NCBI GenBank assembly: GCA_035250975.1 | Contig: DATFEP010000058.1 | Coordinates: forward strand, 13,723-77,722 | DNA length: 64,000 bases | Source: Nitrososphaeraceae archaeon | Lineage (GTDB): Archaea; Thermoproteota; Nitrososphaeria; Nitrososphaerales; Nitrososphaeraceae | Reading direction: 5' to 3' | Shown: positions 1,992-19,207 of the stretch, in pieces | How positions within the stretch are numbered: the first letter of the stretch is position 1 | Layout: each line of letters starts with the position of its first letter | Notes under the pieces: generated by a model | Told to the model about the DNA's origin: nothing | The model's input: only the letters and a program-made list of their open reading frames with translations | Databases searched by the model: none | Made by a program: the position numbers and the translations under genes

Positions 1992-4019
1992 TTATCCTGT
2001 GGTCGTTTCAACATTATATTGATCAAATGTAAATTTTCTTTTTCTACCAAAAGGCTTGAAAGGTTTTCCGTTACCATGATAAAATTTTGAAAAGAATTCA
2101 ACGTAAATCAACCTAGCACCCTGAATACCTGGTTCGAATACACCAAGGACGATATTAAAAATGTGACCTATAAAGAATATTGATATTCCTAGAATAACAT
2201 GCGGAAGTGGGTTATCTATGGTTCTAAGAAAAATATGATCAATTACGTCAGCGAGTATAATTGATGCAAGCATTATTCCTACAATTCTAGTATAGGAAAG
2301 TATATGACTAATTATGGAAGGTAATTCCATCATAGCCCTAACACCTTCACCGTAAAACATCAATCCTAACCCCCCAAGTATCAGCGCAAAATAAACAGCT
2401 CCCGTGATACTACCTGTTGGGTTTATATTTTGATGTCCTATGAGTGCCAATCCTAAAAGAGATATTCCCCAGCCAAACGCAAGCCATCCAATTTTGCCGA
2501 TTGCATGTTTTTTCTGTCCTTCCCTTAGAGCATTTATTATTCCTAGTACAAGCCCAAATGAAACCATACCCAGACCTATATACCCACTTATTAGCAATAA
2601 TTTACGTAGTCCAAATGTACTAATAGGGTCGAGCAGCGCACCGTCAGGCGGCAAGCTGAATCCAAATGTTTCATTTAGAAATGAGAATAGGTATTGATTT
2701 AAGTGAAATCCAAAATAAAGATTAAAACAGAATCCAAGTATAATTGTAAAAATACATCCAGGAATTATTGCCTTGGCTAGCTTCACCATTTGTGTAGGTC
2801 TTAAGATTGTCTTTGCAAAATTCCGTAAAAATTTTGGCATTATAGTAAAATTACGCTTACCACCTTCTACCCTTCTTATGACCCATTTAGAGACAAGTAA
2901 TATAACGATACCGTATCCTACATCACCTATCATCATACCATAAAAAAATGGAAAAATTAAGGCGAACATTATCGTTGGATCGAACTCTCTACCAGAAGGC
3001 AAAGAGTAAAACCTAATAAATGATTCATAAACCTTCATTTTTTTTGGGGTGGCAAGAAGAGTTGGAGGATTCTCTTTACTCTCCAAATCAGACAAAATTG
3101 TTCCCTCAGAATGTTTTTTAAAAGCTGTTTTTAGGTTTTCTATTTTTGGTTTTGGGACCCATCCTTCCAACGCAAAAGCATCTTCTGTTACTCCTAGATG
3201 ATCAATGATCTCTAGTTTTCTATTTTCTATCTCAAGTTGTTCTTCTGCCCCTTTCAGAAATTTGTAATGCATTCTGGAAATTTCAGTCATCTGATTATTA
3301 ATTTGATTTAATTTTGATGATAGAGTATTGCTAATATTTTTCTGATTTTGAATAATAATTTCTGGTTTGCCTTTAAGTTTTGGTACGACCTCTAAATGTA
3401 CATTATGTGAATTAACCGCTGATGCCAAGGATGCCGATCTAAAGGTTGGAGTAGTAATAAGAACAAAATGTGTTACTTTGTTAGCCTCTTTAGGATATAT
3501 AATGATGTCCGGACTTTCAGATTGTAATTCCTTCCTAAATTCTGGAAATTTTTCAGAGGCAACACGTCCAAAGTACGAACGGGCGAAGGATAGATCTAAA
3601 ATATTGAAATCTTCATGAAAGAAAGAAAACTCTTCAACCAGTTTGATATTGTTCTCTGCCTCTCTTTTCTGTGTGGTTAGATTATCCTTTTCCCTTTCCA
3701 GAGACGCAATTTTACTATCAATATCAAGAGACTTTAAGGTCGAAATCAATTCATTTAATGACAAAAATCCAGATTTTCCGACTATTTTTGTTGGTGGAAG
3801 AGAACCAAGTAATCCTTTAATCCTCAGTAGTTGATCAGAAATTTCATTATGAAATTCACTTTCACGTTCTCTAGCAAGAAAGGATTCTGTTGTTTTTGAA
3901 AGAGGTTCGAGGTGTATTACATTCATTTCATGTAAGATAGTAAGAATTTGTTGTCTAAATTTTTTTAGCCCTATTATAGCTACTCGAACCATAGGAACTG
4001 GTTTAAGTATCGTAGACAT
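1992..4019 (-). CDS. atpI: V/A-type ATPase subunit I (a)
   Basis: Soluble N-terminal half, FYGMMIGDVGYG, LSYTRI with the essential Arg, RLIYVEFFSKFY. Confidence 0.97.
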   Translation of the reverse strand: MSTILKPVPMVRVAIIGLKKFRQQILTILHEMNVIHLEPLSKTTESFLARERESEFHNEISDQLLRIKGLLGSLPPTKIVGKSGFLSLNELISTLKSLDIDSKIASLEREKDNLTTQKREAENNIKLVEEFSFFHEDFNILDLSFARSYFGRVASEKFPEFRKELQSESPDIIIYPKEANKVTHFVLITTPTFRSASLASAVNSHNVHLEVVPKLKGKPEIIIQNQKNISNTLSSKLNQINNQMTEISRMHYKFLKGAEEQLEIENRKLEIIDHLGVTEDAFALEGWVPKPKIENLKTAFKKHSEGTILSDLESKENPPTLLATPKKMKVYESFIRFYSLPSGREFDPTIMFALIFPFFYGMMIGDVGYGIVILLVSKWVIRRVEGGKRNFTIMPKFLRNFAKTILRPTQMVKLAKAIIPGCIFTIILGFCFNLYFGFHLNQYLFSFLNETFGFSLPPDGALLDPISTFGLRKLLLISGYIGLGMVSFGLVLGIINALREGQKKHAIGKIGWLAFGWGISLLGLALIGHQNINPTGSITGAVYFALILGGLGLMFYGEGVRAMMELPSIISHILSYTRIVGIMLASIILADVIDHIFLRTIDNPLPHVILGISIFFIGHIFNIVLGVFEPGIQGARLIYVEFFSKFYHGNGKPFKPFGRKRKFTFDQYNVETTTG

Positions 4020-4037: not shown

Positions 4038-4364
4038 TCATATCTTAGAAAGCAGGATTTCTATTATATTCATTATATTCTGTTTGTCAGAATTGAAAGA
4101 GATTGACTTGGATTTTTTTTCTGCATCCGCTAGAATCTGCTCAGCCTCTTTAGAAGCTTCCTGCTTAGCATGTTTAACACTTTCTTCAACCATTTTTTTT
4201 CCTTCTATTTTTGTTTCAGAGATCACGTTTTCTAGCTCGTCTTGTAAATTTTTTATATCTTTCTCAATAGAACGTCTATGTTTCTCAATTTCCACCTGTA
4301 CTTGATCTTCCTTTTCTTTAATTCGCTTTAGTATAGATATATAATCTTGCTGGGAATCTGACAT
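4038..4364 (-). CDS. atpH: V/A-type ATPase peripheral stalk subunit H (G)
   Basis: 108-aa charged coiled coil directly upstream of atpI. Confidence 0.85.
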   Translation of the reverse strand: MSDSQQDYISILKRIKEKEDQVQVEIEKHRRSIEKDIKNLQDELENVISETKIEGKKMVEESVKHAKQEASKEAEQILADAEKKSKSISFNSDKQNIMNIIEILLSKI

Positions 4365-4366
4365 AT

Positions 4367-4540
4367 TTAAGCTCCTAAAAATTGTTTACCTATAATGAAT
4401 AACAAAACTGTTGTCCCTATGATATTTCCAATCTTAAAGGCTCTTCCAATGATATAAAATTTTTTTTGCTTGTCGTTTGCAAAATTTCCTTTAGTGTTAT
4501 TATTTTTATTATTGTCTTTATTATTATAACTATTATGCAT
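4367..4540 (-). CDS. Small (57 aa) predicted membrane protein inside the ATPase operon; not in the ORF track
   Basis: MHNSYNNKDNNKNNNTKGNFANDKQKKFYIIGRAFKIGNIIGTTVLLFIIGKQFLGA*. Overlaps the end of atpD by 8 nt (ATGCATAA) and stops 2 nt before the atpH ATG. Confidence 0.7.
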   Translation of the reverse strand: MHNSYNNKDNNKNNNTKGNFANDKQKKFYIIGRAFKIGNIIGTTVLLFIIGKQFLGA

Positions 4541-5198
4541 GAATCTCTATTTCCTCCTTCTTTTGAATCATTTCTTCTCTTTCTCCCATTTTCCTCTTTA
4601 CAGTTTTCAACATAATGAATGTATCCCGTTCCATCTCATCAAGTCTAAAAGTAATGAATTTCACTGCAGCTAATAATTTAGGAATCAAGACATTTTCTAT
4701 TGCATTATATTTGCGCTTTGTTCTCTCTATTTCATAAAGCAATTTCCTCAATGCAGTTTCTTTCTCTGCTACCTCTAAAACAATTTTGTGAACCTTTTGG
4801 AAGGCTCTTATTGCTTCGTTGATAGATGCTGGGAGTTCAAGTAAATGTTCAGCAAGCAACTCTCTTTCCCCACCAGTTAGCTTGGGGATGTGAACGCCCA
4901 TTATACTCTTTGATTCTATCTGTAAATTTCTCATTTGCGATATTTTCATCGCCTCATTTTCGAGTTGCATTGTACCAGCCAGCATCTCAGCCATTCTGAT
5001 ACTTTCATAGCCTTTTATCAGTTCAGACTGTAAACTACCTCTTAAAGCCGCTGCAGTCTTGCTTGTATTAAAGAATTCAAGAATTAAAGCTTGACGTTTT
5101 AGTTTTAGCAGATTCAAGCCTTTCTTTGCAACCAAAATTCGACGTTTTGTACGTATATATTCAAGGCGAGTTGGTCTAATATCACTAGCGACGCCCAT
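4533..5198 (-). CDS. atpD: V/A-type ATPase subunit D
   Basis: PTRLE...LLKLKRQAL, TKRKYNAIENVLIP, LDEMER. Confidence 0.96.
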   Translation of the reverse strand: MGVASDIRPTRLEYIRTKRRILVAKKGLNLLKLKRQALILEFFNTSKTAAALRGSLQSELIKGYESIRMAEMLAGTMQLENEAMKISQMRNLQIESKSIMGVHIPKLTGGERELLAEHLLELPASINEAIRAFQKVHKIVLEVAEKETALRKLLYEIERTKRKYNAIENVLIPKLLAAVKFITFRLDEMERDTFIMLKTVKRKMGEREEMIQKKEEIEIHA

Positions 5199-5208
5199 TA
5201 TGCACCAA

Positions 5209-6612
5209 TCATGCTCCTTCTGTCCCTGTTTCTACAAGAGCCTTCTTTCTATATTTTGTAATAAATTCCGCCTTTATACGTTTCAATTCGGATTCTGGCA
5301 GATCACTTAAGAGGTCCCACCCGATATCTAGCGTCTGTTCAATCGATCTATTTTCATTTACTCCCTGATTTACGAATTTTCGTTCAAAATTATTAGCAAT
5401 TTTAACAAATTTTCTATCAGTATCACTTAATGCTTCCTCTCCGACTATTGCGGCCAATCCCCTAGCATCTTTTCCTTGGGCATATGTTGCATAGAGCTGA
5501 TCAGCAAGATTTCTGTGATCTTCCCTTGTTCTACCACTACCGATCCCTTGATTCATTAATCTTGAGAGACTTGTTAGTACATCAACTGGAGGTTGAATAT
5601 TCAATCTGTTCAGATCTCTACTCAAAACTATCTGACCTTCTGTAATATATCCAGTTAGATCGGGTATAGGATGTGTAATATCATCTGCTGGCATAGCAAG
5701 AATTGGAATTTGAGTAACAGAACCCTTTCTACCTTTAATTTTTCCTGCACGTTCATAAATTGAGGACAGATCTGTATACATATAACCCGGGTATCCCCTT
5801 CTTCCAGGGACCTCTTCACGTGCTGCGGAAATTTCCCTTAGAGCTTCACAATAATTGGTCATGTCAGTGAGTATAACTAGCACATGCATCTCTCGTTCAT
5901 AGGCTAGGAATTCTGCTGTTGTTAGGGCAAGTCTTGGAGTAAGTATACGTTCCATTGAAGGATCAGATGATAGATTTAGGAAAAGAACACTTCTACCAAG
6001 TGCTCCACTTTCTTCAAACTCATTCACGAAGAAATTAGCTTCTTCACTTGTAATACCCATTGCAGCAAATACTACAGAAAAATTTTCTGAGGTCCCAAGA
6101 ACTTTGGCTTGTCTAGCAATCTGTGTTGCTAGTAAATTATGTGGCAAGCCAGCACCGGAAAAAATAGGAAGTTTCTGTCCTCTGACAAGAGTATTCATCC
6201 CATCTATATTAGACATGCCGGTCTGGATAAATTCAGACGGTTCTTCTCTAGAATAGGGATTTATTCCAGAACCTACCAAATCGTATTTTTGTTTAGATAT
6301 AATCTTTGGTCCATTATCTCTTGGTTTTCCCAATCCGTCAAAAGTTCTTCCGAGCATTTCGTCAGATACAGAAATCATGGCGGTTTCACCCAAGAATTTT
6401 GTTGAAGTTCCACTAGTACCAAGTCCATATGTTGCTCCAAATACTTGGACAACTGCCAAGCCTTGTTTTGTATCAAGTACTTGTCCTAAACGATGTTCTC
6501 CATCTGCTAACTTTATCTCCACCATCTCTCCGTAGGCTGCATTATCAACACCTTCAACAAAAATCAAAGGACCAGCTATCTTGGATAAGGTTTTAAACGC
6601 TACATTAGACAT
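5209..6612 (-). CDS. atpB: V/A-type ATPase subunit B
   Basis: [43 protein letters not shown]. Confidence 0.99.
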
Positions 6613-6614
6613 TT

Positions 6615-8381
6615 TTAAATTGTTACCTCCAGCAACAAATTATCATATTGTTGTTTCATATTTATCTTGATCTCATTAAGTAATTGTTCAACTTCTTCTT
6701 CTTTTGTCCATTTCATCTTTGATAAAAGTTTTCGTGCCTCAAGGGCACCAACCTTTGAGGATGGAACCCCTTTCTTTATAGCTTCAGCTTCCATTCTTCC
6801 GAATTCTAATATCATAGAGAGCATCAAATTCTGTTTTTTGATAGAGGTGTAAGTATCGACTTCATCGTAAGCACTTTGCTGAAGATAGTCTTCTCGAATA
6901 GATCGTGCAGTATCCAAAATACCTTTTTCAGGTTCAGGTAATGCATCATATCCTATCAGTTGAACAATTTCTTGTAATTCTGACTCCCTTTGTAAAATTT
7001 CTAAAGCTTCCTTCCTCTGCGGAATCCATTCAGAAGAGACATTGTTGTTGTACCAGTTAGTCATATCATCAGCATACAAGGAATAACTTGTTAGCCAGTT
7101 TATAGAGGGAAAGTGCCTTCTTGACGCTAAATTAGCATCGAGTGCCCAAAATACTCTTGTAACTCTTAAAGTATTTTGAGAAACAGGTTCAGAAAAGTCT
7201 CCTCCTGGTGGAGATACTGCACCAACTAAAGTCAGAGAACCGACCCGCTCTTCGGGAGATATTACTACTGCCTTTCCTCCCCTTTCATAAAATTCCGCTA
7301 ATCTTCTTCCAAGGTAAGCTGGATATCCTTCCTCTCCAGGCATTTCTTCCAGCCTGCCTGAGATTTCTCTCAATGCTTCGGCCCACCTTGACGTACTATC
7401 AGCCATCAAGGCCACATCATATCCCATGTCTCTATAATATTCACCCATGGTAATACCGGTATAGATACTTGCTTCACGAGCTGCAACGGGCATGTTCGAT
7501 GTATTTGCAACAAGAATAGTTCTCTCCATTAATGGTCTTTTTGATTTTGGATCTTCTAATTCTGGAAAGGTAGTGAGAATCTCTGTCATTTCGTTTCCTC
7601 TTTCACCGCATCCAATGTAAACGATAACACTACTGTCTGCCCACTTTGCAAGTTGTTGTTGAGTTACTGTTTTTCCACTTCCAAAGGGTCCTGGAATAGC
7701 TGCTGTCCCACCCTTTGCTACTGGAAAAAAGGTATCAAGAACACGCTGTCCTGTAAGCAAGGGTGACTCTGGTGGAAGTTTGCGAAGAACAGGTCTTGCC
7801 ATTCTTACCATCCACCAACTTGATAAACCAATATCCTTAGTACCCGTATTTGTTTTCACTTGTGCAACATTTTCATTAACTGTGTATTTCCCTTCTGTTA
7901 TTTCGGAAAGTTGACCATTAATACCAAAGGGAATCATTATTTTGTGACTTATCAATGGCGTTTCTTGAACCTCTCCAATTATTTCACCTGGAGAAACGTT
8001 TTCACCATTTTTCTTGATTGGGACAAAATCCCATTTCTTATGTTCGTCTAAAGCGGGAATAATATTGCCTCTGCTGATAAAATCACCGCTTTTCTCCCTT
8101 AATACATCGAGCGGGCGTTGAATTCCATCATAAATTGACGTCAACAATCCTGGTCCAAGCTGCATTGATAGTGGTCTCTTTGTGTTGATAACTTTTTCTC
8201 CCGGTCTAAGTCCTGTAGTATCTTCGTATACTTGTATTGTGGCCTTATTACCTTCAAGACGGATAATTTCTCCGAGCAAACCCAATTCTCCAATTCTTAC
8301 AACATCATACATTTTTGCAGCTTCAACATCTGTCGCTACAACAACTGGACCCGAAATTCTCGAAACAATAGCAGTTGACAT
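6615..8381 (-). CDS. atpA: V/A-type ATPase catalytic subunit A
   Basis: Walker [31 protein letters not shown]; no intein. Confidence 0.99.
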
Positions 8382-8401
8382 ACTAATATTTCACTCCTTC
8401 A

Positions 8402-8746
8402 TCAACCCATTTTAATACTTATCCCAAGTACACGTTTAGCCAACGTCGCGATCGATTCCTCCTGAACATTTCCTTTTAAGGAGGGCATAAACAAAACCAA
8501 TGGTTCGATAGATGCTTCGACTCTTGTTCTAAATAAGTGTGGAAGAGAAGCACTGACAAACTGACTAGCGATTATCAAGTTAAACTTTCGAGAGAAAAAA
8601 ATGCTTTCCATAGTTTTCAGAGCCTCATCTGCTTGGTTAACTATATATGTATCGTCTATCCCCAATAGGCGATAGCCCATTACAAGTTCTCTTTCACCTA
8701 TGATAGCAATTGCACCATCTGATTCTGATTTTTGTTTAGTTGACAT
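8402..8746 (-). CDS. atpF: V/A-type ATPase subunit F
   Basis: IAIIGERELVMGYRLLGI; position in the operon. Confidence 0.93.
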   Translation of the reverse strand: MSTKQKSESDGAIAIIGERELVMGYRLLGIDDTYIVNQADEALKTMESIFFSRKFNLIIASQFVSASLPHLFRTRVEASIEPLVLFMPSLKGNVQEESIATLAKRVLGISIKMG

Positions 8747-8752
8747 TTTATA

Positions 8753-9820
8753 TCACTCCAAAAGTAGCATTGATTTAATACGTTCAACGGGGATATCATA
8801 ACGTTTTCCATACGCTATTCTTTTAATGTTGTCCCATTCAGATTCTGCAGTTAAGATAAAATGAAAAATTGTTCCTATTGAGAGTGATATATTTTTCAAT
8901 CTTTTTACATATGTTTTAATAATAAATTTATCCAAGGCCACCTCAAAATCTATTAGATTGTTGGTCTTGATAAAGTTATCCAATAAATCATCTAACTTGT
9001 AGTAATCTTGTATTTTCCCTATAAATTCATTAATATTTTTTGATCCAAAAATATCAAGCAAGATATTCAATGGAATGTTCCCCCCTTCGATAAGATGTTT
9101 ATTTAATAATTCTCGATCCAGATTGGAATCCCTAGCTTTTAATACATTTAAAATGTTCTTTTTATCTATTTGTGCTCTAAATAACTCTCTAATTACTCCC
9201 TCATCACCTTGAAAAAACTTTAAGGATTCAAGTAATGACTTGTAATAATATGATTGAAGATCAGCCATCATAGGACCAAGGTCGGCTGTTTTTTGATAAG
9301 CATCAAGATGTTGCATCAATATGGTTCCATATCTATACTTTATGAGTTGATTCACGACACCCTCTACGTTGGTTTGCGACAAAATAATTTTCATTTCATC
9401 ATGTGCAATATTTCCTGCTGAGATTCCTGCAGGAACATTTCTACTAGATACCAGAAAATGTTCTGTTTCCGTTATTGCACGTCCTATTAATTTAGAAGAT
9501 AAAATTAATTCTATATTATGAATATCCCACTTTAAAAGATAGGCTCTGACCGCAGCCCTTCCACTGAACGGTGTAGCTTCAAGAGCAATTTTGTTTATAT
9601 CAACCATATGTCTATTGAGAGCTACTTCTAAAAGTTCTGGTGGCGAATATACAGCTGCTGCTTTTTCTATTTCTGGACCGTAGGACGTAGGTTCAAGCAT
9701 CCTAATAATTTCAGCAACATCTTTGGCCTGAGCGAGACTTAGAATAAAATCCTTAGATAGAAAGCTCATCGAGAGTGCCTGCAATCTTCCAAAAGAAGAG
9801 GAATATGATGAGGTCGTCAT
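8753..9820 (-). CDS. atpC: V/A-type ATPase subunit C (d)
   Basis: 355 aa; WDIHNIELIL and EWDNIKRIAYGK motifs. Confidence 0.93.
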   Translation of the reverse strand: MTTSSYSSSFGRLQALSMSFLSKDFILSLAQAKDVAEIIRMLEPTSYGPEIEKAAAVYSPPELLEVALNRHMVDINKIALEATPFSGRAAVRAYLLKWDIHNIELILSSKLIGRAITETEHFLVSSRNVPAGISAGNIAHDEMKIILSQTNVEGVVNQLIKYRYGTILMQHLDAYQKTADLGPMMADLQSYYYKSLLESLKFFQGDEGVIRELFRAQIDKKNILNVLKARDSNLDRELLNKHLIEGGNIPLNILLDIFGSKNINEFIGKIQDYYKLDDLLDNFIKTNNLIDFEVALDKFIIKTYVKRLKNISLSIGTIFHFILTAESEWDNIKRIAYGKRYDIPVERIKSMLLLE

Positions 9821-9822
9821 TA

Positions 9823-10386
9823 CTACTTTATCATTCTCTCAAGAAGAAAACTTTTTACATCATCTTCATGAGTTCTTAACAACTCTTCAAAGGTCAGATC
9901 GATCTCTCTAGTTCCATTATTATCCTCTGCTAGAATTCCACCTATAGTATCGATAGTTGCTCCGAGTGTTACGTTCATAGCTTTAATAGCCATACTATCA
10001 TCAACATTAGAATGAATTACTACGTTCTTACCCAAATTCTTTTTTGCATGGTTGACCATCCTTTCCAGAGTTTTTTTGTATTCTGGTTTCTTGGTATAAT
10101 TTTTTAATTCTTGTCTTATTGTATTAAAGGTGGAATCCATGTTTTCATTAATTGCATCAAAAAGGACCTTTTTTGCGTCTAACTTAGCCGTCTCCACTAT
10201 CCTAGCCGCATCTCTTTGAGACCTTACTTTTGCTTCATTAGCATAAAACTCTTTGAGCTCTTTTATTGTAGTTTCCTTTGATATTTCAATGGCTGCTTTC
10301 TTTTCAGCAAAAGAAGTATCAATAATATCTATTTTTCTTTGTTTCCTCTCATCAATCTCTCGCATGAAAGTGAACAGGCTTGTCAT
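9823..10386 (-). CDS. atpE: V/A-type ATPase subunit E
   Basis: N-terminal coiled coil; C-terminal IGGILAE...IDLTFEE. Confidence 0.9.
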   Translation of the reverse strand: MTSLFTFMREIDERKQRKIDIIDTSFAEKKAAIEISKETTIKELKEFYANEAKVRSQRDAARIVETAKLDAKKVLFDAINENMDSTFNTIRQELKNYTKKPEYKKTLERMVNHAKKNLGKNVVIHSNVDDSMAIKAMNVTLGATIDTIGGILAEDNNGTREIDLTFEELLRTHEDDVKSFLLERMIK

Positions 10387-10401
10387 CTAACAAGTCGCCA
10401 C

Positions 10402-10746
10402 TTAGAGTATTCCTAACAGTAGAATTATTCCTAGCACGAAACCAATAATCCAAAGAGTCTCAGGGATCACGAAGAAGAATAGAACCTGTCCAAACTTTTC
10501 TGGTTTCTCTGCTATTATCCCCATTCCTGCCGCACCTATACCTTGCTGAGCATTTCCAGTACCTATAAGACCACCTGCAATTGCTATTGCTGCCGCAATT
10601 GCCAATAATGGCTTCGTCAAATCTGAACTAGCTGCTTTCGCTGTCTCTTGGGCAAACACTTGTGTAGTAGATAATGTAAAAGCAGCAATTGCCAATCCTG
10701 CAATTATAGTAATAATTGACAATTTTGAACCATTATATCTCATCAT
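10402..10746 (-). CDS. atpK: V/A-type ATPase proteolipid subunit K (c), single hairpin with a signal-peptide-like leader
   Basis: GIGAAGMGIIAEKPEKFG loop; PET with the ion-binding Glu; leader ends VFA-QE. Confidence 0.95.
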   Translation of the reverse strand: MMRYNGSKLSIITIIAGLAIAAFTLSTTQVFAQETAKAASSDLTKPLLAIAAAIAIAGGLIGTGNAQQGIGAAGMGIIAEKPEKFGQVLFFFVIPETLWIIGFVLGIILLLGIL

Positions 10747-10771
10747 TACTAGATATGGTTAATTATATGGT

Positions 10772-10790
10772 TATATTAAGAGTTTTCTCC
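10772..10790 (-). promoter_or_regulatory. Putative BRE/TATA promoter of the ATPase operon
   Basis: Minus strand GGAGAAAACTC-TTAATATA about 27-33 nt upstream of the atpK start. Confidence 0.5.
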
Positions 10791-11355
10791 AAATTTCCTA
10801 AGAATTTGTACGCAACCTATGAAATAATAGTATTGTTTTTTCAATTAATTTCAACTAAAGTATAACAGATTGCATTTTCTAACTCCTATATCATATGGAA
10901 ATTTGATAAGATATTTGACCAAAAAATACTCAATCATCTCCATGAAATAAAAAGTAATAGGTAGATTTGGAGATAACTGAGATTCAATAGATTCTTCTAT
11001 TATACTTAGTATCATATAAAAAAGTCAGCTTGCTCATTGTTAAATTTTCTCTGCTCATTCTGATTTCATAAATTTCATTAATAGTTCGACGTAATTTTCA
11101 ACGCGAAGTTGATCAACCAAGAATTGATATTGGGATTTACACTACTATCAAATATACATGTTACCGATAATTTATGAATGGTTTGTTAATTTTTTTGCTA
11201 AATATTTGAGTTTGATCTAATATTCAATAGTATACAAAAAAAATTTAATTGTTGGTTACATGGTCATTTTATGTAAAACATTACTAAAAATTGGTTGTTC
11301 ATTCGACTGCAGATTCGGTCGAATTAACAATAAATTCACAAGCATTTCCATCAAA

Positions 11356-11625
11356 TTACTTAGTCAAATTTTGCGCAGCATCTGTTTGATTAGAAGTTAT
11401 ATTTGCAAGAGCACTTGCAGTCGCGTTAACAATAGTTTCTGTTGTATTTCCAATAGATTCAACGAATGAAAAATTCTCCAGCGGGTTATCACCTGTCAAC
11501 TTTTCCAGTTCTTCTATGCTCCCTACTGCGTTAACATCTTGGGAGGCGTTCTGTGCAAAAACGTGAGTAGTTGACGTCAGAACCACCAGACTTGCAAAGA
11601 TAATCAATGTAATTCCTTGATTCAT
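11356..11625 (-). CDS. Small secreted protein rich in N-x-S/T sequons
   Basis: Signal peptide ends VFA-Q; GSIEELEKLTG motif is shared with 33706..34098. Confidence 0.75.
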   Translation of the reverse strand: MNQGITLIIFASLVVLTSTTHVFAQNASQDVNAVGSIEELEKLTGDNPLENFSFVESIGNTTETIVNATASALANITSNQTDAAQNLTK

Positions 11626-12112
11626 AATAAATTTCTGAATCTAATCATATATTATCTTTTATATTCATAGAAGGATCTAATAAAATTTGAATATTTTCAT
11701 ACATTTCGGCTTGAATTCAGGCGCTAATAATTTTGTTTCGTCGCTTTAAAAAATATATTTAAAATATTTTTTACCTATGTTTTTAAAGCAGATCCATAAT
11801 GGAAATTTTTCATTTCAGACAAGAATCATCGCGTAATAAATGATATGCCAACGTTATCCTAATTTTATAAATCAAACCGAGTTATTTCTAATCCTTGAAT
11901 TTCACACGCAAACATAATTTGTAAAAGAAGGATGTTTTAATCTTTTGACACATTTTTTTCTTACCAACAAGATGGAGAAAAAAGGGTAAAGGATTAACAA
12001 AATAACGAGCAAGTACATTGTGAAAAACTTGTAAAGACGTTACCCACATATCATAATGCCGTGATTGAAAGACATTACAATGCTAATAAAGTTTGTTAGT
12101 TAATATTATTTA

Positions 12113-12319
12113 TTGGGAATTACAGAAAAATTGGAAAACATTATAAGAATTTGCAGATATGAAGACGATGTAGATAAAAAAGTTGTGCTGTTACTTTCGA
12201 TCGATAATTTGTTGCCTAACAAAAATAAATTAAAAATTCCTTCATATGTGACAAGAGACTATATCGATATGATTTTAAATGAGCTAGAAAAGAAGATAGA
12301 ATATCAAAAGTTAATATGA
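12113..12319 (+). CDS. Hypothetical protein
   Basis: Protein-like composition, TTG start, AT-rich box upstream. Confidence 0.6.
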   Translation: MGITEKLENIIRICRYEDDVDKKVVLLLSIDNLLPNKNKLKIPSYVTRDYIDMILNELEKKIEYQKLI

Positions 12320-12580
12320 AATATAGCATAACAATACAGTATTTCACTGTAATCGCCCTGAATTTTAATCTAGAATTATGCTACAATCTTATGATATCCA
12401 CGACTAATAATAAAAAATGATTTTTCCTGATCTAGAATTCTTGTTATATATTTTATAATTCAAAATATTTACTAAAATATCACTAAATTTCCTGTTTAAA
12501 ACCAGTTTAGATTATTATAAACATCTTAGAAGGATAATAAACAATTTTAACAGCTATAGAGTTATTATAATGCGAATCAT

Positions 12581-12982
12581 TTGAGAGCGAAAAAAATTAT
12601 GATTATAGAAGATGAATTAGATATTTTATTATTGTATAAAGACTATTTGGCAAACAAGGGGTATGAGGTAATTGGAACCTCTACGACCGCAAATGAAATT
12701 CTGAAGGATTATGAAAATTCTCTTCCAGATATTGTTATGTTAGATTATAAATTACCAGGAAATATGAATGGTCTCGATGCAGCTAAAATGCTCTTGCAGA
12801 AAAAGACGGATTTATCCATAATACTGGTTACTGCTTTTGATGAGGTAAAGAAGGAGATAAATAAGGATCCTTTCTTTTCTAGTAAAAAAATATCAGTACT
12901 TATTAAACCGGTTAGATTGAACTTACTTGAAAAACATATAAGAAACTTGGGGAATATTTTACCAAAAAACAAGAGCAAATAA
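12581..12982 (+). CDS. Stand-alone response regulator receiver
   Basis: IIEDE, DIVMLDYKLPG with the phospho-Asp, LVTAF, KP. Confidence 0.93.
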   Translation: MRAKKIMIIEDELDILLLYKDYLANKGYEVIGTSTTANEILKDYENSLPDIVMLDYKLPGNMNGLDAAKMLLQKKTDLSIILVTAFDEVKKEINKDPFFSSKKISVLIKPVRLNLLEKHIRNLGNILPKNKSK

Positions 12983-13107
12983 TAAAATCAGATTATGTTT
13001 TATATCTTATATGTGCACTCAATATATCTAGAATTTTATCGTATAAACATAATTATCATCAAAAAATTTATATATTTGACTATCTCGCCGACCTAAATCT
13101 AATAGTC

Positions 13108-13455
13108 TTAGAAGACGTACACTTCTGATGCTTTCTTCTTCTCTAGGTCTACATCTATTATGAATAAACATGTTTTTAATATATCTACAGTATACGAAAG
13201 CCTACAAATATCCAGTACATCTTTGGTATTTTTCAGCTCGTAGCTTAATTCAATTGTGGCATCTTGAATTATTGCTCTTAAAGAATACAAGTCATCAACT
13301 TTTTTACTCACAAATTTGATCCACATCAGGATTGCTTTCTCGACTGATTCATGATATTTAATATTACTTGAACTATTGTCATAGTCTTTGGTTACCTTAT
13401 TTACAATTTCCCCAAAATTTATTTCAGTTGTGAGAATCATTTTAATCAAAACCAA
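13108..13455 (-). CDS. Hypothetical protein, probably co-transcribed with tfb
   Basis: Starts 33 nt downstream of tfb on the same strand; helical. Confidence 0.6.
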   Translation of the reverse strand: MVLIKMILTTEINFGEIVNKVTKDYDNSSSNIKYHESVEKAILMWIKFVSKKVDDLYSLRAIIQDATIELSYELKNTKDVLDICRLSYTVDILKTCLFIIDVDLEKKKASEVYVF

Positions 13456-13488
13456 AACAAAAGTAGTTCATTTTTAATGTAAGACTTT

Positions 13489-14424
13489 TTACTCGTTTTT
13501 TGATAATGCATTATCTGGCAAGTGAGGGAAAATTTGCTTCACGTCAAGAAATCTTTTTCGTAGTGTTACAACACTCATATTTCCTGCATTTGCAATTTTT
13601 GACTGAGTTATTTTTTCCCCTTTTTCTAGACAAGCACCATATAAGGTAGCAACAGATAAAGCTGTTGGATCTTTTCCATATGAAATGGGATCGTCGTTAA
13701 TTAACGTCATCATTTCTAATGCCCTAACCATAGTTTGTCGAGTTATACCTGCTATTCCAGCAATTTTTGTCATGTGGGTGGTAGAGTCAATTAACGGTAA
13801 ATTGATCGTCAGGTGTCTCAGAAGTAGACGATAACAACGCCCTGCAAATACTTTATCAGCATTAACAGAATTAGAAATTTCACTGATTGTACGAGGAACT
13901 TTCAATTCTCTACAAACGACATATACGCAAGCAACAATGAATTCTTTAATAGAACGACCTTTTATTATTTTTAAGTCTACTACTTTACGGTAATAATATG
14001 CTGATTTTTCGATAATAGTTTCGCTTAATGATAACTTATCTTTTATTCTCATTAGAATGCTAAATGCTTTCTTTAAATTTCTATGATAGCTTCTGTTACT
14101 ATTTGATATCTTGTTCCAATGACGTATCTTAACTGCTTTTGAGATTTGTTTAACATTTAGTTGATTACCATATGCATCTACATTTTCCTGAGAAATTGTT
14201 GTGGACAATCCTTTATCAAAAATAAGCAATGAATTTTTTTCCAAGTTTTGCGATCTATCAGCTGAAATATCATCAGTAACAAACTGCTCGCAATTTACTA
14301 CACCACATTTGGTACAAATTATCTCACTGCTAATACTGTCAAAAACTAGATTTGAATTTTTACAATTAAAGCAAATGTCTTTTGTTGTATCTGGTTTCTG
14401 TAATTTTTCTACTAATTTACTCAC
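13489..14424 (-). CDS. tfb: Transcription initiation factor IIB paralog
   Basis: Zn ribbon CFNC...CTKCGVV; cyclin repeats (IIKGRSI, VPRTISEI, GKDPTAL); C-terminal ITQSKIA...VTLRKRF. Confidence 0.95.
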   Translation of the reverse strand: MSKLVEKLQKPDTTKDICFNCKNSNLVFDSISSEIICTKCGVVNCEQFVTDDISADRSQNLEKNSLLIFDKGLSTTISQENVDAYGNQLNVKQISKAVKIRHWNKISNSNRSYHRNLKKAFSILMRIKDKLSLSETIIEKSAYYYRKVVDLKIIKGRSIKEFIVACVYVVCRELKVPRTISEISNSVNADKVFAGRCYRLLLRHLTINLPLIDSTTHMTKIAGIAGITRQTMVRALEMMTLINDDPISYGKDPTALSVATLYGACLEKGEKITQSKIANAGNMSVVTLRKRFLDVKQIFPHLPDNALSKNE

Positions 14425-14552
14425 AGATGGAACTTATTTTTGGAATTAATAAAGGATAGGTTTACATAGTACGAAAAAAATTATAATAATTACAAATAAC
14501 TACAAACGAACACAAAGAAACACAATTATAAGCGCTTAGCGTTCTCAATATA

Positions 14553-15074
14553 GTGAAATCTGTTACACGGTCCTTTAGACTTGAAGATTCTCTATCTAAG
14601 ATTCTAGATGAAGAAGCCGACAGAATGGGAATTTCAATCAATGCATTAGTTAATATAATTATTAAGCAATATTTGGATTTCACGCGCTACTTGTCCAAAA
14701 TAGACATGGTTATCATCAACAGAGAGCTCTTGAGGGTTTTGTTAGAATCCTTAGAAGAGAAGGAGATCTATGATATTGCAATTTTATTTGGAAGCAGTAT
14801 ACCAAAAGATACAATATTATTTTGGAAAAAAGAACTAACCAATCATACCGTCTTTGAATACCTTGAAAAAATCGTATGTAGATATGGTTTGTTAGGAACT
14901 TATGATGAGATGTTCCAAAATGACATAAAAACAATTGTTATACGGCACAGACTTGGAAAAAAGGGTTCGGTCTTTTTCAACGGTTATTTGAAATCTACAT
15001 TGAAAAATACCTTAGGATTAGATACTTCAGTAGAATTGACCGAATCATCTGTGAAAATTCAAATTAAAATATAG
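14553..15074 (+). CDS. Ribbon-helix-helix DNA-binding protein with a C-terminal domain
   Basis: KSVTRSFRLEDSLSKILDEEADRMGISINALVNIII fits the RHH pattern; divergent from tfb. Confidence 0.8.
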   Translation: MKSVTRSFRLEDSLSKILDEEADRMGISINALVNIIIKQYLDFTRYLSKIDMVIINRELLRVLLESLEEKEIYDIAILFGSSIPKDTILFWKKELTNHTVFEYLEKIVCRYGLLGTYDEMFQNDIKTIVIRHRLGKKGSVFFNGYLKSTLKNTLGLDTSVELTESSVKIQIKI

Positions 15075-15477
15075 TGAATATTAGAGAAGTTTAATCCGAA
15101 AGTGCAATTGATTCTTATACATCTACAATAAAAGAAGATAAATCAAAATAGCACCAATGAAAGAAGCACTAATCTTAGTTCGAAAGTCTAATACTACTAG
15201 CTATCATGGAAATTTTGTCTCTAATTGAATTTTTAACAAACGATATTTGGTTTTATGACCGCATGTTTAATACTGTAAGTCTTATTACAGATTATGAGAA
15301 TTATGAAAAATTTTTGCGAGGTCGACTTGGACAAGATGAAGATGTAAAATCATAATTTAGAACTTGATTAGTGCAATAGAGGATATTGAAATTAAATGGC
15401 AAAGATAAAATGATATGTTGCTAGATCGGTTTCATTTGCAGCTAATAATCATTTCAAAAATTAAGTATATGTACAGA

Positions 15478-15705
15478 TCATAAATCATATTTCATCCATT
15501 TGTTTTCAACTATCATATTTTCAAAATCTCTTTTACTGCTGAAGTGTTCTTCTATAGCATCAGCATCATCCTGAATAGAGTACAGAGAATAACCTGGAAA
15601 GTGCTCTACTATAATTGTGGAATCAGATTTCATATCCATAAAAATCTCTAAAGTACTCTTAGCATTTTCTTTAATCAAGTGCTCGCTCATTTTATAACTT
15701 TCCAT
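15478..15705 (-). CDS. Hypothetical protein
   Basis: Clean ORF; GGTGG SD-like sequence just upstream. Confidence 0.55.
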   Translation of the reverse strand: MESYKMSEHLIKENAKSTLEIFMDMKSDSTIIVEHFPGYSLYSIQDDADAIEEHFSSKRDFENMIVENKWMKYDL

Positions 15706-16099: not shown

Positions 16100-16501
16100 T
16101 TGATAAATGAACATATGCAAAAACCAAGAGTTTTCATAGTTCAGGAAGATGAAGATGCCAACATAATATTATCTGGGATGTTATGTTTAAAGGGTATTGA
16201 GGCACTCAAGTTCACCACAGGAGAAGATTGCATTAAAAAAATAAGAGAATTCAAAGGAAAGGTGGATGTAGTAATAATTAGTGGCGATATCGCGTCCGAT
16301 AGATATCTAAAGATTGTATTAACCATTAAACAGATAAATAATAATATCAAAATCTTGGTGATTGCTGAGGAAGATTCTGAAAAGACTAGACTCTTGGGTT
16401 ACGGAGCAGATGAATTTACCTTAAAACCAATGAGTCCCGAGAATGTGGCAGATAAGGTATTTATGTTAATTTCAAGGGAAGCTATACTGGATAACAGGTA
16501 G
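16100..16501 (+). CDS. Receiver-domain protein apparently lacking the phospho-acceptor Asp
   Basis: Receiver pattern (VFIVQEDED, GADEFTLKP), but beta-3 reads DVVIISGD instead of DxxxxD. Confidence 0.85.
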   Translation: MINEHMQKPRVFIVQEDEDANIILSGMLCLKGIEALKFTTGEDCIKKIREFKGKVDVVIISGDIASDRYLKIVLTIKQINNNIKILVIAEEDSEKTRLLGYGADEFTLKPMSPENVADKVFMLISREAILDNR

Positions 16502-16777
16502 CAATCGTACACTAACATGCGACAGCACGTTTTTCTTTCTATTATTTATTTTTGGACTAGAAGTTGTTTGAAGAGATTCAATAGTTTAGATATTTTAGTA
16601 GGTCTGAGATAGGTTTATTGCAGTAACTTTTTTAATCCAATAATGAACGTATAATTTAAAATGGTCTAAATAAGCAGATTAAAATGTGTTGAAAAATAAG
16701 TATTTAGGTACAGGCTCTTTTGTATTTATTTATTATTTTTGCTTCTATATTAAGTATTATGTATATTATATAATGGA

Positions 16778-17281
16778 ATGAAAAATCTGTCTAAATATGT
16801 AATAATGGCTGCTGGATTAGTTGCAATTTCAATACTGGTTCCCAACGTCCAGGCACAAAACAATACTGAATTTTCATCAAGCCAAGGTCAATCTCAGACT
16901 GCATCCAATGAAACGATGTCTTTAATGTCATTAAATATAGGAGAACTCAAAGACTCGCTTGTGAATGCAAAAGATGCTGTTTCAACAGGAAATTTTGAAA
17001 ATGCATTGACAGAAGTCACAAATGTCGAAAATCAACTATTACTTGTTAAAGGAGAACAACCACCATTTGTAAGTGATATCCAGGCTATAAAAGAATCGAT
17101 AGCAAATTCTGATGCTCCAAAGACACTTGATGGAATAACAAATGTTCAAATTGAACTATTAAAAGCCGAGACTGATATGATGAAAGCAAACCAAGGAAAC
17201 CCCCAAATGATGATGGGTCAAAATGCTAATAATGATGACAACCAGCAGAATGATGACGACGATAATGAAGACAAAAACTAG
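16778..17281 (+). CDS. Secreted helical protein with an acidic low-complexity tail
   Basis: Signal peptide ends VQA-Q; two similar helical segments; NDDDDNEDKN tail. Confidence 0.8.
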   Translation: MKNLSKYVIMAAGLVAISILVPNVQAQNNTEFSSSQGQSQTASNETMSLMSLNIGELKDSLVNAKDAVSTGNFENALTEVTNVENQLLLVKGEQPPFVSDIQAIKESIANSDAPKTLDGITNVQIELLKAETDMMKANQGNPQMMMGQNANNDDNQQNDDDDNEDKN

Positions 17282-17624
17282 CAAAAATATTAACTAATCT
17301 TCACCTATTTTTTTCAAACCTTCTTTACTATCATTGCATTGTAATTAATATATATTATTTAAGAATAACTTGAATTATAAACATTACAATTTTATTAATA
17401 TTTAGTTTTAAAAAAATAAGAGTTGACTTAATTACCAATCGATAAGTTAAGAAAGATTAATTAATTTAATAAATTCTGAATTTGTATCGGGTTTTCATTT
17501 ACATTTGAGGTTTTCCCAAGATTCGTATCTTAATCGATATAGTTAATATTCAATATGTGTATTTACTCGTATACGTTATAATATACTTACAAATTTTAAT
17601 ATATTATGTATTACTATAAACATT

Positions 17625-17933
17625 ATGGAAAGTATCCATAATATTTATTGCTATGATCCCATAGGTAAGATTGCTAGACTAATAGGGGGAAAAAGTATTG
17701 GAAAGGTAAAAAAAATATTAGATAAAAATATAATTACACAAAGAGACAATGGTGAAATATTTTATTTACCAAATAAGAGCGTTTACGGATTTGATGGAAT
17801 GAATTTTTGGTTTATGTTATCAGAACGTGACCTATTTGAATATAAAATCAATGGGGTTTTTGATGTTCAATATTTTTCTTCATCTGCTAATCCAACTAAC
17901 TACTTTATAAACAATAAATGGATGGTCAATTGA
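17625..17933 (+). CDS. PRC-barrel-like single-repeat protein
   Basis: IGKIARLIGGKSIGKVK...FYLPNKSVYGFDGMNFW aligns by eye with the repeats of 53438..54445. Confidence 0.65.
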   Translation: MESIHNIYCYDPIGKIARLIGGKSIGKVKKILDKNIITQRDNGEIFYLPNKSVYGFDGMNFWFMLSERDLFEYKINGVFDVQYFSSSANPTNYFINNKWMVN

Positions 17934-18342
17934 TGTGTGTGGAATTGCAGGTAAATTCCGAAATTTAGTTCAGCTATCAACGATATCTTGACCTGCTTAA
18001 TAATTTAGCAATAGTTATACCAGCGCATGTATTTTTAATCGATATGTCAACATTAAATCCTGTTTTTGATCAATTGCAAGAATAACAAGCTCAGAAACTA
18101 GATAGATTGAAGCTTTTAAACTAACGAACGTATCTGATTAAACATCTGCCATCGAATCACTTCAAGGATGGATAGAATTATTTGTCAATATATTGCAACA
18201 TAATATTGCAACGAAGTAGAATTTTAATAAAATAACTACTATGATCTTCCTCTATGAGTTGATCATTCAATTAAATGATGATCGAGATTAAAATTCTAGA
18301 TTAGTTCTAAGATAGATCCCGATCGAGTTTGGTAATGATTTG

Positions 18343-18486
18343 TCAGCCGCCTCCTGCTCCCTCGCCTCCTCCTGTAGATTCAACTTCGAACGGTTCAAAT
18401 TCCTTTTTAATTTCTTGTAGGCTTTGATTTTTTAAATCCTCTTCGGTTTTTTTCTTTTCAATCTTTTTTTTAGGTTTTTTGCTCAT
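18343..18486 (-). CDS. 47-aa charged protein with a Gly-rich C-terminus; not in the ORF track
   Basis: MSKKPKKKIEKKKTEEDLKNQSLQEIKKEFEPFEVESTGGGEGAGGG*; CTTATAAA box about 25 nt upstream. Confidence 0.65.
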   Translation of the reverse strand: MSKKPKKKIEKKKTEEDLKNQSLQEIKKEFEPFEVESTGGGEGAGGG

Positions 18487-19207
18487 AAAAAATAATGTTT
18501 TTCATTTTTTATAAGCATTATCCAATCATTACCTCTTAAATCTTTTGACAAGGTTTTAGTCCTATTTAAAATAATGAAAAATGCCACGTGATAAATAGTA
18601 AGTGTGGATACATATTATTGATAGAATTGATTGGTTAGAAATAGATAGAATCTCAGGTATTATTTCTAATTCTTGTTTTTTCGGGTTCCGAATAAAATCA
18701 TTTTAAAAATAATCTTTATAAAATCTCTAATGGGTAAATTTAGACTTTTTGCTGAAATTAAATATATTTTATTGTGTGTGAACAGGATAAGGTCAGGTCA
18801 TTTTGTAATCCTAGGATAATATAATCACTTATCATTTATATTAAATAAATTAATATTCAAATCATTTGTCGTCTGCTGACAGAGAATTGAATCTTTTTAA
18901 TCTATTTAAAACCGGCTTCGAGAAAGAAATTTAACCATAAATACTCTACAATACTATCTATTTTATTTTTGATTTATTTATTTATTTTTTCTTTTTTTAT
19001 TTTTGATGCCTATTAAACCGCTTTTCTAAAAATCTATTCATAATATGGTAACTATAATAAAATGCAAATAATGATAGATATTTCTATATATTGCACGATA
19101 AGTCATTGAATGGCACTAGTTCGAATTATTGATTATCTGTCTTCTTAAACATTCCTCAATATTTAACTTCGTAAAACCGTTTTATACTATAAAGTATAGA
19201 TCTAACT

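Follow-up and report, generated by a model that had tools for sequence, protein, structure and literature searches.

A conserved gene for a predicted tail-anchored microprotein between atpD and atpH in the V-type-like ATPase operon of Nitrososphaeraceae and related archaea

The operon and the small gene after atpD

The window (the whole 64,000-nt stretch of DNA that was analyzed, from a Nitrososphaeraceae archaeon; G+C = 30%) carried a complete V/A-type ATPase operon on its minus strand, in the order K-E-C-F-A-B-D-X-H-I, where X denotes the small gene described here (Table 1). An initial reading made from the letters of the window, without database searches (the sequence-only reading), had described an open reading frame that fills the gap between atpD and atpH, and the layout was as described. 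The X ATG lies inside the last codons of atpD, the overlap reading TTATGCAT on the plus strand and therefore ATGCATAA on the minus strand, and the X TAA (4367-4369) stands 2 nt before the atpH ATG. The TIGR02926 match of atpH (1.3e-5) scored 25.4 bits, with a curated cut-off of 48.5 bits; positional orthologues of atpH were present in all same-genus loci.

Among same-genus loci, the start of X overlapped the atpD stop by 8 nt in nine and by 11 nt in eight (17 of the 18 loci holding D), and L018 was the single same-genus locus with a TTG start for X. At locus L091 the start-stop overlap takes the form ATGA. A GGAG-containing string was found at the matching place in all 17 loci with an ATG start; the upstream GGAGG also codes for the C-terminus of D and is therefore not independent evidence. 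A D-X fusion by frameshifting was considered and ruled out, since X kept its own start codon in 17/18 loci.

Two further features of the operon region were recorded. The c/K ORF is extended at its N-terminus by ~45 aa, part of them hydrophobic and either signal-like or forming a further helix; tblastn covered this extension in L081-L083 and L097, and in L079 and L080 the tblastn match to K was limited to residues 63-104, at 100% identity. Downstream of the operon, a 167-aa ORF was located at 614-1117 on the minus strand.

Table 1. Coordinates of the operon genes, of the parts of X and of related features (positions refer to the window unless a locus is named)
Feature	Position	Strand	Basis
atpK (c/K subunit)	10402-10746	-	Pfam match
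atpE	9823-10386	-	Pfam match
atpC	8753-9820	-	Pfam match
atpF	8402-8746	-	Pfam match
atpA	6615-8381	-	length, position, tblastn identity to orthologous operons
atpB	5209-6612	-	length, position, tblastn identity to orthologous operons
atpB, A, F, C, E, K together (remaining operon genes)	5209-10746	-	Pfam, position or tblastn
atpD (V-type subunit D)	4533-5198	-	PF01813 3e-44; NF001545 1.1e-59
GGAGG, 12 nt 5' of the X start, within atpD	4553-4557	-	sequence reading
Overlap of X start with atpD stop (ATGCATAA)	4533-4540	-	8 nt
X, predicted 57-aa tail-anchored single-helix membrane microprotein	4367-4540 (stop codon included)	-	ORF and orthologues
X residues 1-19, Asn/Lys-rich, length-variable, predicted disordered	4484-4540	-	alignments, AlphaFold2
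X residues 20-36, basic juxtamembrane motif FxNxxQ[KR][KR]F[YF]x[IV]xxx[FL][KR]	4433-4483	-	conservation
X residues 37-55, predicted hydrophobic membrane segment, small-xxx-small (G38, G42)	4376-4432	-	hydropathy, AlphaFold2
atpH (stalk subunit H/G)	4038-4364	-	weak TIGR02926 AhaH and PF16999 V-ATPase_G_2 matches
atpI (membrane subunit I/a)	1992-4019	-	PF01496 8.4e-27
Zinc-ribbon paralogue	L020:1483-1725	-	core and helix match
Zinc-ribbon paralogue	L079:13993-14235	+	core and helix match
Zinc-ribbon paralogue	L080:13627-13890	+	core and helix match

Coding evidence and occurrence

From base composition, the chance of an open run of 57 codons on the minus strand was ~0.008, and the X frame stayed open in only 33 of 20000 shuffles of its 174 nt. 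A six-frame search of 41 related genomes returned X at E <=1e-12 in G000 and in 18 of the 24 other same-genus genomes, every same-genus match being an open frame; of the six same-genus genomes that lacked X, four had no D but a distant one of A-type (E 1e-14 to 1e-18), and two had no D match. Across the same-genus loci the X frame was free of stops in 19/19, and the other five frames were stopped in 15-19 of the 19. X was directly 5' of H and I in all 19 and directly 3' of D in 18; the nineteenth, L010, starts inside X and holds X-H-I.

Selection was estimated on a gap-free alignment of the 37-codon core of 19 sequences. Mean pN/pS was 0.25, pairwise differences at codon positions 1, 2 and 3 averaged 0.21, 0.13 and 0.38, and omega relative to the X of the window was 0.08-0.25 wherever dS was unsaturated. 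Length changes in the N-terminus were of whole codons only (alignments A1 and A3). Identity across the genus was 54-98% for X and 48-95% for H, and tblastn detected X but not H in L082, L083 and L085, and conservation of X is at least that of the accepted subunit H. In GC-rich lineages of differing nucleotide composition X keeps its motif at 17-40% identity, which argues against a non-coding spacer. Judged by these comparisons, X is a real protein-coding gene under purifying selection.

Metatranscriptome contigs from soil and rhizosphere covered X with D or H sequence in three of four runs, from three studies, with DNA carry-over possible. A 372-nt RNA-library contig was identical to 4285-4656 and joins the start of H, X and the end of D; a 1125-nt contig spans 3939-5063 and a 466-nt contig 4059-4521. 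Within X the contigs differed by I49F, by one change in the length-variable N-terminus and by a 6-nt insertion after 4517 that keeps the frame, all of it compatible with a coding X; a 2-nt insertion was in the X-H spacer. They show that X occurs together with D or H on one molecule, and neither translation nor, strictly, transcription. RNA run X3 left 4370-4557 uncovered and gives no evidence either way.

For linkage within the family, an even draw of 201 genomes was used, in which D split into two groups, a V-type group (76-100% identity, E <=1e-97) and an A-type group (~30% identity, E ~1e-20). A full V-type D was present in 65/201 genomes, and all 65 had X. Profile A1 of X matched 63 genomes, all within those 65, and X and D matches adjoined on a shared contig and strand in 61/63, being on separate contigs in G020 and G142. 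In the two genomes that A1 missed (G041 and G115), the corresponding gap held divergent forms of X, 52 and 56 aa long, and the wider profile A2 found both. No X match was obtained in any of the 135 family genomes without a V-type D match, nor in G202 (83% complete), which holds only a 63-residue V-type D fragment in an open frame of just 74 aa. These tallies include the unpublished genomes G130, G111, G073, G178 and G184, all A-type-only, and no conclusion depends on them. By these counts, X is strictly linked to the V-type-like operon type.

Across the order, A2 matched 95 of 401 genomes (a tally that includes the unpublished G408 and G297). Matches outside the family of the window came from f4 (4/9), f7 (4/13), f10 (27/97) and f13 (19/112), with one weak match each in f15 and f19. 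Twenty loci were hand-picked from f4, f7, f10 and f13, and in 19 of them X lay after D and ahead of I, preceding H wherever that gene was detected, the operon being K-E-C-F-A-B-D-(X)-H-I or the part of it held by the contig; their X shared the core and was 17-54% identical to X of the window. The weak profile match of G392 (L098) was rejected as noise or a relic, with three internal stops and no ATPase genes within 10 kb.

One genome per species (185,579 species) was then scanned with the V-type D alignment. This gave 332 loci, the best 80 of which were taken, and an X-profile match was in frame directly 3' of D in 80/80. All of these best 80 were labelled Nitrososphaerota, Marsarchaeota or Thermoprotei, or were unlabelled; named among them were Candidatus Nitrosotalea devanaterra, Nitrosotalea spp., Candidatus Nitrosopolaris, Candidatus Gagatemarchaeum stordalenia, a Candidatus Marsarchaeota MAG (L155) and two 'Thermoprotei archaeon' MAGs (L161, L169). 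D of L155, L161 and L169 was 53-58% identical to D of the window. A protein search with D gave close relatives only, among the best 120 of 2016 matches, and a phylum-wide draw of 401 genomes contained no V-type-like D outside the order, D there being <=36% identical. The sequence-only reading had named conservation in orthologous operons and dN/dS as checks on the frame. The frame proved conserved and V-type-linked, across several families as well as in MAGs that bear the labels of other orders, and the pN/pS above points to purifying selection.

Some loci departed from the usual operon structure. The A/B tblastn matches were split by 0.7-1.6 kb in L088 (3454-4958 and 6788-8433) and, for the A subunit, in L131, L133 and L153, which suggests that some lineages have intein-like insertions in their catalytic subunits. 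At L090:3923-12570, C, A, B, D and I matched in shifted pieces and X was intact; the shifted pieces indicate numerous breaks of frame, caused either by decay or by errors of assembly.

The predicted protein and its relatives

The translation of X has an N/K-rich N-terminus and ends in the C-terminal stretch FYIIGRAFKIGNIIGTTVLLFIIGKQFLGA. An Asn/Lys-rich N-terminus followed by a hydrophobic, Gly-containing C-terminal helix had been read from the window sequence, and both alignment and AlphaFold2 agreed with it. With 31 sequences, AlphaFold2 gave a mean pLDDT of 76.7, with residues 1-22 unstructured and one helix at residues 23-55; block means for residues 21-57 were 84, 94, 96 and 85, and the mean of residues 1-20 was ~51, residues 8-15 falling below 50.

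In an alignment of 40 sequences, conservation was highest in residues 20-40 (F20, 37/40; N22, 38/40; Q25, 39/40; F28, 39/40; K/R36, 39/40), the conserved sites being F20, N22, Q25, K/R26, K/R27, F28, Y/F29, I/V31, F/L35, K/R36, N/K39 and I/V40. Position 38 was G or A in 34/40 and position 42 in 31/40. The core motif and the terminal hydrophobic helix are both present in X of the window, which is the first row of alignments A1-A3. A single conserved helix face was looked for and rejected, the conservation moment not being maximal at 100 degrees; conserved positions are spread round the helix, which leaves a simple one-sided packing model unsupported.

The hydrophobic stretch of the window X, IGNIIGTTVLLFIIG, averaged 2.07 on the Kyte-Doolittle scale over 15 residues; over 19 residues the mean was 1.59. 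It is short in the genus of the window, 15 residues between two lysines, and the 19-residue mean is borderline. X ended two residues past the membrane segment in the window and 0-6 residues after it in 40/40 sequences, and a membrane segment at the C-terminal end makes X, by prediction, tail-anchored. With five basic residues before the helix and one after, the established positive-inside rule would put both the motif and the N-terminus of X in the cytoplasm, on V1's side of the membrane.

The X of deep lineages has a longer N-terminus (61-90 aa in all), with a PK(Y/F)YYW(G/A)KxPPKP motif before the core (L155:4636-4905, L161:4638-4826, L131:4637-4876 and others), and the X of ammonia oxidisers lacks this motif, which has been lost there.

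X had no match in Pfam (E up to 0.1) or NCBIfam, 40 X members searched against Pfam at E up to 1 gave only scattered single-member chance matches, and a PDB sequence search returned no resembling chain. In the ESM Atlas the nearest clusters were unnamed (0.82), and named ones were at chance level. A word-indexed database search with the long-form alignment gave 43 proteins, all named 'hypothetical protein' except one mislabelled 'PilN', from Nitrososphaerota, Nitrososphaerales or Conexivisphaerales where an organism was shown. Searched exhaustively with the profile, 1.84 billion representative proteins gave 22 clusters only, of 37-97 aa, and the 21 of these that were read all had the X motif or part of it. 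With so few clusters, the X family is narrow and bound to this type of operon. By these searches the family is undescribed. The gene had earlier been called hidden, which is overstated, because gene callers already list X in public databases as 'hypothetical protein'. Three ORFs in which X is fused to parts of H (P0016, P0018 and P0032) were rejected as natural fusions and judged to be frameshifted metagenome contigs.

A second X-like gene, of 80-87 aa, was found in three f4 genomes, divergent 5' of atpK and beside pyrI (Table 1). Its N-terminus is zinc-ribbon-like, CPRC...CxxC (CPRC...CxxCGKWY), and precedes the X core and helix. L079 clearly has both copies; in L080 the zinc-ribbon copy is accompanied by only a degenerate one downstream of D. 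This paralogue hints at an independent link of the membrane module to the operon, kept in a second arrangement. Database proteins like the zinc-ribbon paralogue were P0025, P0029 and P0031.

Precedents and possible roles

The main paper on V-type-like operons counts nine subunits without naming X, and the word 'hypothetical' is absent from its main text (PMC6863869); a thaumarchaeal V-type operon has been expressed in E. coli (PMC6863869). In the N. devanaterra genome paper, NDEV_1999 is atpI and NDEV_2002 is atpD, which would leave two tags between them, for H plus one more gene. Literature searches found no description of a small gene between D and H in ammonia oxidisers. The statement of the sequence-only reading that standard prokaryotic V/A-ATPases have nine subunit types agrees with the published count for these operons (PMC6863869) and does not extend to methanogens, whose A-type operons already have a tenth small gene, ahaG, after D.

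AhaG of Methanosarcina mazei Go1 is described as a 6.3 kDa product of a gene beside ahaD, one tryptic peptide of which is 'very hydrophobic'; on its participation in the enzyme 'questions persist', and homologues are missing in several archaea (PMC4350412). The gene is also listed in Methanothermobacter, a table gives the methanogen gene order as ahaGDBAFCEKIH (PMC3087415), and for acid-mine Thermoplasmatales the absence of an AhaG orthologue is reported (PMC3750248). Compared by published description, AhaG is the closest precedent for X. Each is the small hydrophobic product of a gene adjoining D (X having 57 aa and a hydrophobic C-terminus, directly after D), whereas ahaG is last in its operon and X precedes H and I. 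No sequence relation to AhaG came out of the X profile search, in which all 21 matches read, of the 22 from 1.84 billion representatives, had the X motif in whole or in part.

AtpI/UncI, AtpZ and AtpQ/AtpR are likewise small non-catalytic membrane proteins, encoded in F-/N-type ATPase operons and with unclear or assembly roles. They have several membrane helices and are located at the operon start, whereas X, which has a single helix, is encoded between D and H, with no Pfam match for X or for 40 of its members beyond the chance matches given above. The small proteins of the eukaryotic Vo sector (subunits e and f, the Voa1/Ac45 helix and Vma21), which sit on subunit a or in the c ring or are assembly aids, share with X the concept of a very small membrane protein; they differ in having two helices or the opposite topology, and no sequence similarity to X was seen in Pfam. 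Enterococcus hirae NtpH, reportedly the product of a small gene that immediately follows ntpD in the V-type operon of this bacterium and reportedly absent from the purified enzyme, resembles X by description in its place straight after D. The string ntpFIKECGABDHJ occurs in PMC3608713, and the literature search found no ntpH papers.

We lean towards the reading that X works with the V-type-like ATPase as a partner of the membrane sector, in a lasting association. It may well be an accessory subunit or an assembly factor there, binding to the sector being what we infer. Overlap of the stop and start codons would tie the synthesis of X to that of subunit D, and the C-terminal helix of X, with small residues at 38 and 42, would insert in the membrane and pack on the membrane sector, against either the K ring or subunit I's C-terminal domain. 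The basic motif FxNxxQ[KR][KR]F[YF] would then sit at the cytoplasmic face of the sector, and X would stay as a small accessory subunit or aid assembly of the sector. The position of X, always directly 3' of D and 5' of H and I, argues for such a partnership, as does the keeping of different forms of start-stop overlap (8 or 11 nt; ATGA in L091). Against it stand the spread of conserved positions over no single helix face, the borderline, short hydrophobic stretch, the published count of nine subunits and the absence of the analogue AhaG from purified subcomplexes.

A tentative alternative is that X is an assembly chaperone only, which aids insertion of the K ring or subunit I and is absent from the mature enzyme. 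Such a role is ascribed to AtpI/UncI for F-type c rings and to Vma21 for the yeast Vo. The linkage of X to the operon fits a chaperone equally, and its variable, disordered N-terminus would suit a transient helper; expressed subcomplexes did not yield AhaG, the product of the methanogen gene after D (PMC4350412). The coupling to D by overlap speaks for subunit-like production levels instead, and X has no likeness to known assembly factors in Pfam or NCBIfam.

It is unlikely that X is a regulatory micropeptide that binds to the membrane sector and adjusts proton flow, or the direction in which the enzyme runs, in the manner of phospholamban. Tail-anchored peptides of the phospholamban type regulate P-type pumps, and a tail-anchored single helix with a conserved cytoplasmic juxtamembrane motif would suit such a role, but X is constitutively coupled in the operon and no separate regulatory signal was seen. 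The ESM Atlas does list a phospholamban cluster, at a score of 0.77; scores below 0.9 are leads only and this one is at chance level, so that it counts as no evidence, and neither the Atlas nor Pfam gave phospholamban-type similarity above chance. Regulation would agree with the tie of this operon type to acid and pressure adaptation (PMC6863869).

Very unlikely is a passenger, that is, a real small membrane protein kept by its position and with a job unrelated to the ATPase. Patchy occurrence would be expected of a passenger, whereas X was present in 65/65 family genomes with a full V-type D, in 19/20 chosen loci and in 80/80 public loci (the best 80 of 332), occupying one slot in lineages with D proteins only 52-60% identical, and was absent where the V-type operon was absent. 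The reading of X as no gene at all, either a chance open frame or a spacer conserved as an RNA element or as coupling signals, may appeal to the shortness of the ORF and its low-complexity N-terminus in an AT-rich genome, but with substitutions gathered at third codon positions (pN/pS 0.25), the X frame alone staying open, length changes in frame within the ORF and not so in the X-H spacer, and an amino-acid motif kept at 17-40% identity in GC-rich lineages, it has next to no chance of being right and is, in practice, refuted.

To return to X as a partner of the ATPase, a bolder and doubtful form of that reading makes X a stoichiometric tenth subunit specific to the V-type-like ATPase that operon transfer has spread among acid- and pressure-adapted archaea, its motif aiding the adaptive property. 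If so, the juxtamembrane motif would aid, for example, tighter sealing against proton back-flow or the stability of the stator-rotor interface, and the documented low-pH benefit of the operon would depend on a gene left out of every published description. Among genetic correlates of how ammonia-oxidising archaea spread to acid soils and hadal depths, the V-type-like operon is documented best (PMC6863869), and X, across the genomes compared, is the tenth gene of this operon, always with it and absent without it. X alters what to clone, express, purify and model, and heterologous expression or a structure that leaves it out may overlook a component. The old question of small AhaG-like genes beside D is reopened too, with a much larger and cleaner comparative data set; roughly 160 operons were collected.

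As a separate observation, L084 carried a V-type-like operon (7052-15659) followed directly on the same strand by A-type D, B and A genes (16351-18979; D 27% identical), an arrangement that resembles the two-ATPase state known from descriptions of hadal ammonia oxidisers.
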